From: Candidatus Thorarchaeota archaeon
GTDB lineage: Archaea > Asgardarchaeota > Thorarchaeia > Thorarchaeales > Thorarchaeaceae
Assembly: GCA_963726195.1 (NCBI GenBank)
Contig: CAVSBO010000007.1
Location: 32,001 to 96,000 of the forward strand
Direction of reading: 5' to 3'
Length of the DNA stretch: 64,000 bases
Shown here: positions 9,306-34,936 of the stretch, piece after piece
Position numbering within the stretch: position 1 is the first letter of the stretch
Layout of the letters: the number at the start of each line of letters is the position of its first letter
The notes under the pieces: generated by a model
What the model was told of the DNA's origin: nothing
Seen by the model: only the letters and a program-made list of their open reading frames with translations
The model's database searches: none
Made by a program: the position numbers and the translations under genes

Positions 9306-9459
9306 GAGCTGGCCGCTTGGCGGCTTCACAACCAAAACCGATGCTTGCGGTGGAAATAATGTGACGATTTTGTCACAAGCTTTTTTAATACGGACCCACG
9401 CAGCGGAAAAAAGACAAGCTCCTAAGAGACCAGCGAGCAAGGGACCGGAGTAGAAGATC

Positions 9460-10648
9460 ATGCCCACAGCAATGCTTCTGATTGATTGGGACAGTAAGAT
9501 AGGTGCTGTTTTGAAAGCAAAGGTTCCCAAGGATTTTGCTGACTATTACAAGGAAGACCTGAACACAGAAATCATGCGTATCTTCACGTCGCATGCTATG
9601 GGTGACGCCACTGCAGGATTCTCGTCTCTAAGTATTCGAATCGGCGGCGAGGAGTATGGCGTCGCATCATACTATACAGGAATCCTTCGCGAGGAGGAAC
9701 AGTACTGTGTGTCGCTGCTTCTGACTCCTTCTGAAGATCCGAAGATGTATGAAGCGGCAATAACCTCCATTGTTTCTCCGCTCACGAATGCAGTTGTCTC
9801 AATGACTGATGCTGAGTTTCAAGCAGAGTTTGAGAACACCTACCGTAGAATAATCAGATTGGCTGGCATGACCGATGAGTCGCGTCTTGCTCGACTATTC
9901 GCTGACGAAGTCTCAAGGGCTGTCTTTCCCAAGCTTTGGAAGGGAGGCATATCCAAAGAGGATCTTGAGGAATGGCTGAAGATGGTCACAGGCCTACCTA
10001 GCGTCAGCGTGGACTCCATACTATCACCATTTGAGGAGCTGAGGTATCATCAAGACCGACTGGGTCGACGAGATTGGTAGGACCTGTATCTTCATGATAA
10101 AAGACCTCGAAGTTTTCCGTGCCCCGCCACTACAAGCCATGGAGGCTGCTGGTTCAATCCTGGATCCTGAGCTTGCAGCTGAGTACAAGGGCGAGGTGCT
10201 TGAGTTCCTGACAGAGTGGCAGAAGACACCTGACGATACAGTGGCCGTTGCTCAGGTTTTGGCAGACCCCGATTGTTATGATATGATGAATGAACTGAGG
10301 CGTCGGCCTGCAAACATATCTGAGCTTGAGGCCACACTTGGGATTCCGCCCAAGGAACTGAAAGAGGCAATTCAGACTCTTAAGAAGTACAGAATTGTCT
10401 CTGAGAAGAGACGGAAGGGATCCTCCGGGGAGTTCGACAAGTGGCTGTTCCTCCTGAATGATATCCGTGTACGGCTCTTTTTCCCTGAGTATTTCTTGCA
10501 GTCTCTCATAGTCGACCTCGAGAAGACGCCAGACGATCCGAAGGCAAGGGAGATGGTACATCACCACCTGCGCCTGCTACGAGAACAACTTCCCACGATG
10601 AGAGTATTGTCAGCGTTGGTGAGCGTTACCTGTTTGGTGTTCGCCTAG
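9460..10648 (+). CDS. uDENN/longin-like N-terminus plus wHTH protein (split by +1 indel near 10040; C-terminus possibly also shifted)
   Basis: IDWDSKIGAVLKAKVP uDENN-type start; removing one A in gagctgAggtatc joins ORFs 9460..10080 and 10094..10648 (EELGIIKTDWVDEIGRTCIFMIKDL). Confidence 0.6.
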
Positions 10649-10827
10649 GTCAGAAGCCTTCTGCGTATTCTCTGGCCCATTAGAACGTAGTTGGCGTCAG
10701 GATTCTAGAACAGGAATAGAAGAAGGGCTCAGGCGAGGAATTCGGCGAATTATGACTAGACACCGGCTCCGCTCGCCCGATATGTTGTCTTCCTGCTATA
10801 TGAGCTCCTCCATTCTTGGGCTCGTGA

Positions 10828-11450
10828 TTGGCAGTTATTGGTTCTCTAGTTAGGAGATATCGTTGAAGACTGTCTGTCGGTTGATTGAGGGTTGGGGGCT
10901 GAAAGCATTTTCGGTGAAAACCGAATGAACGCAAAAACAGGCGGACTACCAATCGTTCCTCCGGGCGGTCCTTGGTAAGACCCTCTGAGAGGAGCCAATG
11001 CCCTCCTGTGGACAACTACGGTTCACAGGACCGCAACTAGTTTAGAGCCCGGTGCCAGTTCCAGAATTGGGACTGGCACCCGCAACATCTTCTTATGATT
11101 GGGCTTTCGCCCTGCCGATTCCTGAGCAACCATCCTCAAAGTCTCACCCAAACACCGGATGAACCGGGTTCGTTGTAGGCACCGGCAAGATAGGAAAATC
11201 TGACCATTGACAGACCGTTTAATGCAGCCTTTGTGAGAGTCGGCTATCTGTCGACAACTTCGTGATAAACGCGACAAAGAAGATCCCACAATCGGTTGAC
11301 GGCGAGGGGAAGTTCCTTTTGCTTTCGAAGACTAGGTAAATTCATAAGCTTCGTTTGCCAAGGATGCTTGGTTGATTCGGGTTTCCGGCCTGAATCAATT
11401 CCGTAAGAGTGGTTATGTCGAGGAGCGCGGTTCCCGTCTGGAACTCGCTT
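10828..11450 (+). ncRNA. Candidate large structured non-coding RNA of unknown family
   Basis: No credible ORF; nested long-range helices and many local hairpins with plus-strand G-U pairs and GNRA loops; TATA-like GCTATATG at ~10795-10802. Confidence 0.6.
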
Positions 11451-11615
11451 AAAAAACGGTCCCTAATCTCCGAGTTTCCAATTGGTCCCCCTTGCCATTG
11501 CAAGTACTTGCGCATTACCGGTTTTTGCCGCGCGCCCCGACAATCGAGCTCACGGAAGCGGGAGCTGCACGATGTGGGCTTAGGCCTAGCGGCTTCCGCC
11601 CACCTTTGTCTCGGC

Positions 11616-12524
11616 TCATCTCATCGCATTTTGGTACCAGATTCGTCTGTATCTTTCCTTGTAGCCAGCCGCACAGTACATCTTCATGGCAGGAACGTTT
11701 CGGCTGTCCGTGATCAACTCTGATTGCATCACGCCCATAGAAGCCGCGCGAATCAACACCTCGCTGAGAATTGAAGCCCAAAAACCGTGATGTCGGGAAC
11801 GAGCTGTCACAACAATCCCATCCATGACCAAACGTCTCATTTGGACAGGACTGCCCGTCGGTCCGAGCAGCGTTCCAACGCAATATGCTGCAGTACGTCC
11901 CTTGTGCAAACCAAAGACGGCCAAGTCTTGGCAGAACGTGTCAAGTTGAATCATTCTAAGGTAGTCGTCAGGGGTGACCTCTTTGTAGTTGAATAGACCC
12001 TTGAACAGACTGTTCTGGAGAGATGCCCATGTGCCCGCGTCTTCCTCTCCTATGGATCGGTAGGTCAGTTCACTCGGACGAGCTTGAACTTGACCGATGT
12101 CAAAATGAACAAGCTTGACCCACTCCAGCATGGGCTCGAAGCCCCGTTTCTCCAAGAAAGACATTGTATCAGGTCTGAAGCTTGGCACATTGCAGATGAC
12201 CTTCTTTGCTCCCAACTCTTCGGCTCTTGCAACAAGATTGGCGGGCAGCTGCGCCCCGATGCCCGCCTTCCTGAATTTTGGATGAACGTACATGGTCAGA
12301 AGAACGATGGATTCAGTTCTCTCTGTACCCTTGACAGTCACTCCGAATGCCGCGACCTGTCCTTTGTTGCGTACTAGGACTATATCACGTGCGATATCGA
12401 TACCGGGGACCGAATAGATTTGCCTGAAGTAATCTCAATCTAGGTCCATGTGGTCGGGATTGTCAAGGCCATTGGCTGCATTATAGATTGCCGCAATCCT
12501 TTCAAAAATGGATGAATCAACCAT
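11616..12524 (-). CDS. Tandem GNAT acetyltransferase (MshD-like architecture) with in-frame UGA at codon 30
   Basis: YVHPKFRKAGIG and NVPAMKMYCAAGY GNAT motifs; the frame continues upstream through TGA (12435-12437) to ATG at 12524. Confidence 0.7.
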
Positions 12525-12728
12525 GTGTGGCACTGACGATTCTTCCTACATATTCTCATGGTATCCTCGCAAGACGTTGGGCCTTCCATGGATTAAAGTA
12601 CCACAGTATGCACAGCATAAGAGATTCAATGGCATAAATCGCGAGAAGCTTTAATTTGCATCAAGCCCCTGAATGACTTGCTAGGATTGACCCGCGGGGT
12701 TTAGTTCAGACTCTTGTTGGTGCCCTGT

Positions 12729-14473
12729 ATGATTCACAACACTTTCTTGGTATACGCTGGAACGGTTCTCGCCTCGTCACAGTACTGGCCGACCACCGTC
12801 ACCCCTGACGAGATTGACGAGTTCATTACAACGAGAGCAGACCTTCTAGCGGAACACGGCGGCTCCATGGACCTCCCGCTCATAATCGGGGACAAGAAGT
12901 TTCTCGCGCGAACTGTGGAGTCTGACATGCTTCTCATCTTTGTCACCGACAAGGGTGAGGATGAGCGTGTTGTTGCCGAGAGACTCGACACAGCGGCAAA
13001 GGAGCTGGCAAAGAAGATCAGAGCGAGCGGGATTCGTGGTATTGCAAAACAATATGCCACACTCATTGAGCCCATGATCACTACTAGGCTCAAGATTGCC
13101 CTTGTGGGAGAGGGTGGTGTTGGAAAAACAACAACTCTGCAACTACTCTTGGGCAACAGTCCTCCATTGTCCTATGTGCCCACGATTGCATTGAACCTTG
13201 AAACGGTCGAGAACATCCGCTTCGGCAGCTACTCTCTTGTCCTATGGGACTTTGCAGGTCAGGAGCGTTTCAGAACTCTGTGGAAGTTCTATTTCCATGG
13301 GGCGGATGTCATATTCTTGGTATGCGATTCGACCCTACGTAATGTGATTGTTAGCAAAGACATACTGAAGCTGATAAGACGCGACGCGCCCAAGGTCCCG
13401 GTGTTTGCGTTGGCAAACAAACAGGACAAGCCCAATGCGATGAAGCCCGAGGTTATCCAGAAGATTCTCGGCATTCCCACCTATCCTATGGTGGCCATCG
13501 ACAGGGACCGCAGAGATGAGATGCTCAAGATACTGCTGACAGCCGCTGCTCAGTTCGTCGGTGTGACTTTGCCCGATGTACCCACTTCCGAGCTGTTTCG
13601 ATTCAGTGACCAAGCCGCAAAGAGCACGATGAAGGGTAAGGCAGCCGCTCGCGAACCGCCACAGCCAGAAGAAGCAGAAGAGGAAGTTATCGAAGAAGTG
13701 CTGGTTGACGAGCAGGGCAATGTGGTTGAGGGCTCAGAGGAATACGAAGTCGTGGAGGAAGTCGTCGAGGTCGTCGACGAAGAGACGGAAAATGAGGCCG
13801 AAGCGGCCCGACAGCCGCAGAGGAAGCACCTCTGGAACAGGAGCAGGGAGAAGCACCCCTGCAAGAAGAGCCGGAGGAGACGGCCGAACAGGAGCAGGAG
13901 GAAGCACCCCTCCAAGAAGAGCAAGAGGAGCCGGCTGAGACCGAACCGGAGATTGAGACAGAGAGCGAGTCTGGTTTCGGAGTCACAGAAGGCGAGGTGG
14001 AATCATCGGCAGAAGAGGAGCAACCGGTGGATAGCGCCTATCCCGAAGAAGAACCCGAAGAACAATTCTCGAGCTCAGAGGTTGCTAGTGATTCTTCCGA
14101 TGTTGCCAAACAGCTGATTGCAGATGCCTTGGACGCAGACGACATAGTCGCCGCAGAGATAGACCGGGTCCCTAGTGAGCATCTAGGCGCAGCTCTGGAC
14201 GCTATACGATGCGATGAGACACTGTCAACAGAACCTGAGAACGATAACGTCCATGCGGTGGGCAACAAAGCCCGACGAGACTTGGACAAGGTCCTAGGTC
14301 CTTCATCCGGCAAGGAAAGCGGCGCCTCTGATCGTCGTAAGATATCTGAGAGCCCGATGGCAGTGGATCAAGATACAATCCGTGAGCTAGACAAGATTAT
14401 CGATAACTCAAACACAGAAGAAAAGCCAAAGTCTACTCGCACAAGGCTGTTGTATGACGACGAGGACGAGTAG
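12729..14473 (+). CDS. Longin-like domain + Arf-like small GTPase + long acidic tail (frameshift near 13808)
   Basis: GEGGVGKT, VPTIALNLETV, WDFAGQERFRTLW, NKQD; N-terminal longin-like MIHNTFLV...LLIFVTD; Glu-rich tail continues in the frame of ORF 13997..14473. Confidence 0.82.
13835..13930 (+). repeat. Imperfect 51-bp tandem repeat (about 2 copies) encoding EQEQxEAPLQEExEExA
   Basis: GAACAGGAGCAGG..GAAGCACCCCT.CAAGAAGAGC starts at 13835 and at 13886. Confidence 0.85.
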
Positions 14474-34830: not shown

Positions 34831-34936
34831 AGCCCCGTGGTGTAGTGGTCCAGCATAGGAGCCTCTGGAGCTCTTGACCGAGGTTCGAATCGTTGTAGGA
34901 TTCGTCCACAACGCGAACGTCCTCGCGGGGCTACCA
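34831..34936 (+). tRNA. tRNA-Gln(CUG) with 30-nt intron at 59/60 (34890-34919)
   Basis: Acceptor AGCCCCG/CGGGGCT+A+CCA; anticodon stem GGAGC/GCTCT with CTG at 34865-34867; T arm CGAGG-TTCGAAT-CCTCG is restored after intron removal; BHB motif. Confidence 0.95.

Follow-up and report, generated by a model that had tools for sequence, protein, structure and literature searches.

A predicted micro-peptide mRNA and a structured non-coding RNA side by side in a Thorarchaeia genome, with a candidate Lrp-fold partner for the peptide family

The locus and its two units

The window, the whole stretch of 64,000 nucleotides analyzed here, corresponds to positions 32001-96000 of contig C7 of the source genome, G000, of which C3 (see below) is another contig. 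Candidatus Thorarchaeota is the source name on homologues of a family-specific protein. Upstream of the region of interest lies a conserved gene of about 390 codons (9460-10648, plus strand), found in 82 of 87 genomes of the class and without a Pfam match. Single extra bases at 10041/2 and 10584 split this gene and, since independent contigs do not have them, the split is probably due to assembly indel errors. On the other side there is a convergent gene for a GNAT acetyltransferase (11616-12341, minus strand; Pfam PF00583). Elsewhere in the window, an Arf-like GTPase with an N-terminal extension and an acidic tail (12714-14473, plus strand) appears to be broken near 13900-14000 into two frames that overlap, which may be a further assembly frameshift, and a tRNA-Gln(CTG) at 34831-34903 (plus strand), with an Rfam score of just 30.8 bits, is the sole match of the tRNA/tmRNA search. 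PADLOC returned nothing meaningful, viral contigs gave no true match to the region (three matches were due to chance) and a metagenome pattern scan returned the species of genome G002 alone. The sigma-70 promoter scan is uninformative for archaea.

Between the two flanking genes the initial annotation had placed a single multi-domain RNA of at least 530 nt, belonging to no recognized family. Plus-strand RNA structure that is under selection and fits no known family is indeed present: the entire stretch folds better than its shuffles, with the plus strand ahead (z -4.4 vs. -3.3 on the minus strand), and it has no match to RNase P, SRP, group I or II introns or other Rfam families at E ≤ 10, nor have eight homologue loci at E ≤ 1 (RNase P and an SRP-like match sit on other contigs of G000). 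The complementarities described are also all in place, but the four long-range helices thought to enclose the molecule are not supported, as their ensemble pair probability is ≤ 0.01 and merely 4/7, 5/7, 5/6 and 6/14 pairs are kept in the G002 orthologue. The 3' arm of one of them (11330-11336) falls inside the predicted promoter of unit B, and the 5' end pairs locally rather than over a long range (10830-10836 with 10868-10874, 7/7 pairs kept in G002). Of the local hairpins, those at 11051-11080 (13/13 pairs) and 11372-11398 (10/12) are preserved in the orthologue.

The boundaries drawn earlier do not hold, because 11096-11330 is without folding excess (z -0.5) and the best-conserved part extends to about 11602; the parts on either side, 10825-11095 and 11368-11602, have z values of -4.2 and -3.0. 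The spacer (11098-11329; z -0.5/-0.6) is 45-58% identical to G002, compared with 80-95% in unit B. Moreover, each half has a predicted promoter of its own and is distributed differently, unit A being found without unit B on contig C3 and unit B without unit A in nearly all relatives, and their adjacency is limited to two species. One stand-alone RNA closed by long helices would account for the complementarities and for the z of -4.4, but the improbable long helices, broken in the orthologue, the internal predicted promoter, the unstructured spacer, a selected ORF and the occurrence of the halves apart at other loci make it very improbable, and nothing was found in support of a ribozyme or scaffold role. 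It is very likely that the host belongs to Thorarchaeia (Asgard) and that the region holds two independent plus-strand genes, here called units A and B; a small RNA and a folded micro-mRNA that are neighbours can look like one large non-coding RNA. Paralogy of the two units was considered and rejected, since the profile of neither finds the other. In genome G084 (contig C69; L132 1080-1112) a degenerate stretch similar to the loop and P2 arm of unit B precedes a Pro-Trp peptide gene by about 100 nt and constitutes a second side-by-side case.

Unit A (putatively 10825-11095, plus strand) appears to be a folded mRNA, with z of -4.2 on the plus and -2.0 on the minus strand; its homologues are on contig C3 of G000 and contigs C77 and C39 of G002. 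The TATA-like box noted earlier (10796-10802, plus strand) stands up to comparison, with an aligned counterpart in 4/4 copies about 125-135 nt before the ATG. A 5' hairpin (10830-10874) is kept in all four copies with changes of the G-U type, and a second hairpin (10910-10925) contains the putative ribosome-binding site GGUGA (10913-10917), which is invariant in the four copies and has its first four bases predicted to be paired in each. The statement that the region has no credible ORF was mistaken: this site is followed by a conserved ORF of 17 codons (10925-10978, plus strand) ending in PPGGPW, a member of a Thorarchaeia Pro-Trp peptide family. Synonymous and nonsynonymous codon changes between copies stand at 3:1, 7:1, 6:2 and 4:2, the stop codon is exchanged between TAA and TAG among strains of the G002 species and, judged by such sequence comparison, the ORF is under purifying selection. 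Unit A likely ends at a 3' hairpin with a pyrimidine tract (11051-11097), in which two pairs show compensatory changes between copies. We infer translation of the ORF, as well as the promoters and ends of both units, from these sequence features.

The window copy (10900-10975) and that at C3:725175-725289 share 89% identity across some 115 nt surrounding the ORF and have diverged beyond it. Copies of unit A within a genome are closer to each other than to their orthologues, which suggests gene conversion or shared selection. Two tandem genes for DapA-like aldolases with a fused C-terminal domain (L010 2046-5063, minus strand) lie 3' of the second copy on C3 and have their own TATA-like box, a layout also seen in G002 (L086). 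The 17-mer itself is rich in Pro and Gly, with a GRAVY of -0.05 and no hydrophobic stretch by inspection. A type I toxin-antitoxin locus would share the structured mRNA and the occluded ribosome-binding site (predicted in four copies), but this candidate was rejected since the peptide is not of the small hydrophobic kind.

The Pro-Trp peptide family and its partner protein

A profile built from the four unit A copies retrieved more distant members in genomes G001, G003 and G073, some of them with two or three tandem cores. The family pattern, PxxPPx[EGD]PW, was searched across 87 genomes of the class and 30 loci were inspected, 21 of which are short stand-alone ORFs from five genera, often with 2-3 tandem cores. 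The peptides of the family have 12-57 residues and a Pro-Trp end, are often tandemly repeated, and come in leader-plus-core as well as multi-core layouts; a terminator-like hairpin follows most of the pattern-locus ORFs. Copies within a genome have one core in common and cores differ between species, as drawn from eight genomes (G000, G002, G003, G024, G078, G093, G104 and G109). Several peptide copies are followed by convergent genes (L130, L134, L136, L141), which favours action in trans. Strong folding of the sense strand is not a general trait of the peptide mRNAs in other genera. A PxxPPxEPW motif inside a conserved 330-aa protein of genus g12 (L138-L140) was treated as unrelated. The literature searched yielded no paper on this peptide family or on the unit B family.

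The peptide ORF usually lies 200-350 nt upstream of a co-oriented gene. Directly downstream of nine pattern loci is a gene for a protein of 650-700 aa (about 660 aa), hereafter the partner. Of 43 family genomes 41 have it, and a search of 157 other Asgard genomes found none. When the survey started from the partner, an upstream ORF ending in Pro-Trp or Pro-Phe was seen by eye at 23 of 29 loci and recovered by a fixed rule at 21 of them. On a fresh set the same rule succeeded at 14 of 20 unseen loci, one probably by chance, against a background of 24/1593 (1.5%) upstream of other long ORFs. Genomes with multiple copies have a distinct peptide upstream of each partner paralogue. In G000 the partner gene is on contig C3 (620236-622317) with no peptide gene adjacent, its gene order being that of G003, and the peptide gene copies are at the window site and at C3:725225. 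Since both G000 and G002 keep the partner without an upstream peptide, the window ORF is best read as a relocated and duplicated member of the family. A convergent gene for a protein of 1400-1600 aa repeatedly follows the partner (L145, L146, L148, L149, L152, L153, L154 and L157); the one that was scanned has bacterial Ig-like domains, and the product is possibly a regulated surface protein.

The partner has no Pfam or NCBIfam family, TPR and enzyme families included. Residues 318-655 of its structure model (pLDDT 89) match NirDL (Foldseek E 1e-5; Z 10.4, rmsd 5.5, 268 residues aligned). Lrp/AsnC regulators are weaker matches, Lrp structures aligning to residues 485-637 with Z 5-6, and archaeal AsnC-type HTH proteins come nearest among the Atlas models. 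In the model the C-terminal half is a tandem Lrp/AsnC fold (wHTH plus ferredoxin-like) and the N-terminal half is novel; the N-terminal domain modelled alone (pLDDT 85) has no clear match (best Z 5.0, tied rows), which leaves a PH/EVH1-like or RRE-like domain unsupported, and gluzincin-like matches to the helical domain are weak (Z under 4.1). The first wHTH keeps basic residues, with R357 invariant; in the second, the recognition helix varies and lacks basic character. Histidines H388, H392 and H394, all in one loop, are nearly invariant across partners. H394 (57/59 members) is at the start of the first beta-2 strand and H572 (37/59; Tyr or Gln in a third of members) just before the second, in an approximate register.

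The complex was modelled for a cognate pair from genome G068, whose peptide has 37 residues and is not the window 17-mer. It scored 0.71, the best control reaching 0.02; of the solved pairs 58 of 80 attain that mark, as do 2 of 110 mismatched ones, but since own alignments were used the counts are only roughly valid. The runs have at least 61% of contacts in common and a peptide pLDDT of at least 48, the fold of the peptide itself being uncertain. Confident contacts to the N-domain and the ferredoxin domains come from peptide residues 15-25 and 32-37; the best-resolved ones use an upstream SPF segment, which the window 17-mer does not have. Conservation is hardly higher at the predicted interface (0.56) than in the rest of the partner (0.54), and no partner residue was found to track the change from EPW to GPW. 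As a model, the complex supports binding between peptide and partner.

Unit B and its candidate target

Unit B (11368-11602, plus strand, about 235 bases) is a structured RNA composed of a variable 5' hairpin, helices P1 and P2, GGUCCC loops (11458-11463 and 11484-11489, plus strand) and a 3' hairpin. Its predicted BRE/TATA-like promoter (11330-11348, plus strand) has a corresponding block upstream of the core, at variable distance, in 58 of 60 homologues. Among 43 homologues, 89% of cells in three helices are paired and all nine P1 pairs show changes on both sides; the covariation score was matched by none of 500 shuffles, and slid registers drop to 26-52%. The motif pattern occurs in 46 of 59 family genomes, essentially in single copy, compared with 2 of 191 others (the background level), and in nearly all family genera unit B holds the same position without unit A. 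Rfam gave no match to unit B. Divergent variants with an altered P2 sequence were seen in genera g12 (L064, L065, L070) and g2 (L062, L063), and in g12 a GNAT-like convergent gene seems, by eye, to lie downstream of the variant.

Each unit B RNA has 1-3 GGUCC motifs in loops or linkers. A candidate target, present in 30/30 leaders, is the GGGAC that adjoins the ribosome-binding site of the gene upstream (9441-9450, plus strand). The loop-leader duplexes are predicted at -11 to -19 kcal/mol, the first loop of the window at -17 kcal/mol. Cognate loop-leader pairs beat swapped ones weakly (36/1000, in related genomes that are kin and not independent), and across the genome the stretches before start codons show no enrichment of GGGACC (17 occurrences, 14.5 expected). 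Pairing of the loops with the GGGAC in the 3' hairpin of unit A was rejected, the site being predicted as paired. Base-pairing sRNAs with C-rich loops include staphylococcal RsaE. Listeria LhrC is of the same kind (PMC4132741). Unit B resembles both in having 1-3 C-rich motifs that are redundant, unpaired and able to pair with a G-rich ribosome-binding region, but it is archaeal, single-copy and without Rfam similarity, and its predicted target is a neighbouring gene. We somewhat favour the reading of unit B as an sRNA whose GGUCCC loops would pair with the GGGAC of the upstream gene and repress its translation; titration of a protein by the repeated loops is an alternative.

Peptide function and its meaning for Thorarchaeia

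Our preferred explanation, with a probability of roughly 0.55, is that the peptide serves as a ligand of the regulator-like 660-aa partner and that unit B is a separate base-pairing sRNA. The peptide would act in trans, its PxxPPxxPW end docking in the ferredoxin barrel of the partner and taking the place that the amino-acid effector has in ordinary Lrp proteins, and docking would switch a regulator in a lineage-specific manner. More peptide would be made from tandem cores and extra gene copies, and its translation would be kept in check by the hairpin that covers the ribosome-binding site. Unit B loops, for their part, would pair with the GGGAC in the leader of the upstream gene, leading to repression of its translation. 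The peptide gene has left its partner, duplicated and kept its core, which argues for action in trans. The signal is as likely to be intracellular as to be one of quorum sensing.

The closest parallels are the RRNPP pairs of Bacillota and phages (Rgg-SHP, PlcR-PapR, Rap-Phr, AimR-AimP), for which the criteria are a propeptide of 10-100 aa and a receptor of 250-500 aa with TPR repeats (PMC10075063). Likewise, a short and often unannotated peptide gene with lineage-specific cores lies by that of a cognate intracellular protein, with peptides (12-57 aa) inside the size range; the adjacency is present in most relatives and absent in G000. However, the partner is outside the receptor description, having 660 aa, a tandem Lrp/AsnC fold and no TPR match, and the peptide is Pro-rich, not hydrophobic and, by inspection, without a hydrophobic stretch of the Sec or SHP export type, in an archaeal host. 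With Lrp/AsnC regulators the modelled partner shares a wHTH plus a ferredoxin-like effector domain. In the siroheme decarboxylase NirDL/AhbAB the tetrapyrrole is bound in the barrel via a His on strand beta-2 (PMC4835899). Both this enzyme (PDB 4czc, 4ch7) and the partner fuse two wHTH plus ferredoxin-like units in one chain, but the partner has about 310 extra N-terminal residues without clear fold match and is 10% identical, and, unlike in Lrp or NirDL, its predicted ligand is a peptide, not an amino acid or a tetrapyrrole.

On the modelled fold, both a regulator and an enzyme remain as identities of the partner. In the latter case it would modify the product of a RiPP-like precursor gene at or near the terminal Trp of each core, perhaps using a metal or a tetrapyrrole as cofactor. 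Among solved structures the nearest fold is indeed that of an enzyme (NirDL), conserved H388, H392 and H394 would suit such a role, H394 and H572 lie approximately where the NirDL beta-2 His would be, the multi-core and leader-plus-core layouts are those of precursors, and the modelled binding fits a substrate as well as a ligand. Archaeal RiPP classes comprise YcaO, radical SAM, lanthipeptide and lasso systems (PMC12144867). A very short ORF of precursor type, with repeated cores and a single dedicated protein beside it, recalls the multi-core RiPPs, but the partner is outside known modifying-enzyme families, the peptide neighbourhoods examined have no recurrent gene for a protease, a transporter or another maturation factor, H572 is replaced in a third of members and the nearest predicted relatives are annotated as AsnC-type HTH proteins. 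We therefore regard an enzyme as plausible but rather unlikely.

The Pro-rich end at the stop codon, the terminator-like hairpin behind it, the structured leader and the co-oriented gene 200-350 nt downstream would also suit a cis-acting leader or arrest peptide, whose slow translation through Pro-Pro and Pro-Trp-stop would reshape the folded mRNA and govern read-through into whatever gene comes next, in most genomes that of the partner and in G000 unit B or the DapA-like operon. This is unlikely, as convergent genes follow four of the peptide copies, unit B has its own predicted promoter, identical cores recur both as internal repeats and between distant copies, a generic stall sensor would not be expected to have species-specific cores and the modelled complex stands up to its controls. 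PxxP and PPEPx motifs are frequently bound by SH3, EVH1 and PRU domains. The peptide could thus be directed at another, polyproline- or Trp-binding protein, its 660-aa neighbour being the transcriptional regulator of the peptide gene or a passenger, and its departure from the partner in G000 and G002 would agree with this; the distinct peptide upstream of each partner paralogue and, again, the controls passed by the complex model make such a target quite improbable.

Chemical communication in archaea is poorly known (PMC12144867). The partner would represent either a new kind of peptide-sensing regulator or, if it is an enzyme, a new kind of peptide-modifying one. The micro-peptide, unannotated and found across the class, and its dedicated partner of Lrp ancestry form a pair that can be tested in vitro and without culture of the host. 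To this the locus contributes a Gly-Pro-Trp variant that has departed from its partner and been duplicated, and an out-of-sample test of the pairing, and unit B contributes an Asgard sRNA that is spread through the family, covaries strongly and has a candidate target open to testing. Tentatively, Thorarchaeia may use peptide signalling in which species-specific Pro-Trp peptides, exported or intracellular, are received by a tandem Lrp/AsnC fold and not by TPRs. To our knowledge no such peptide-receptor system has been described in archaea and, if true, this would be a peptide signalling system in the lineage closest to eukaryotes.
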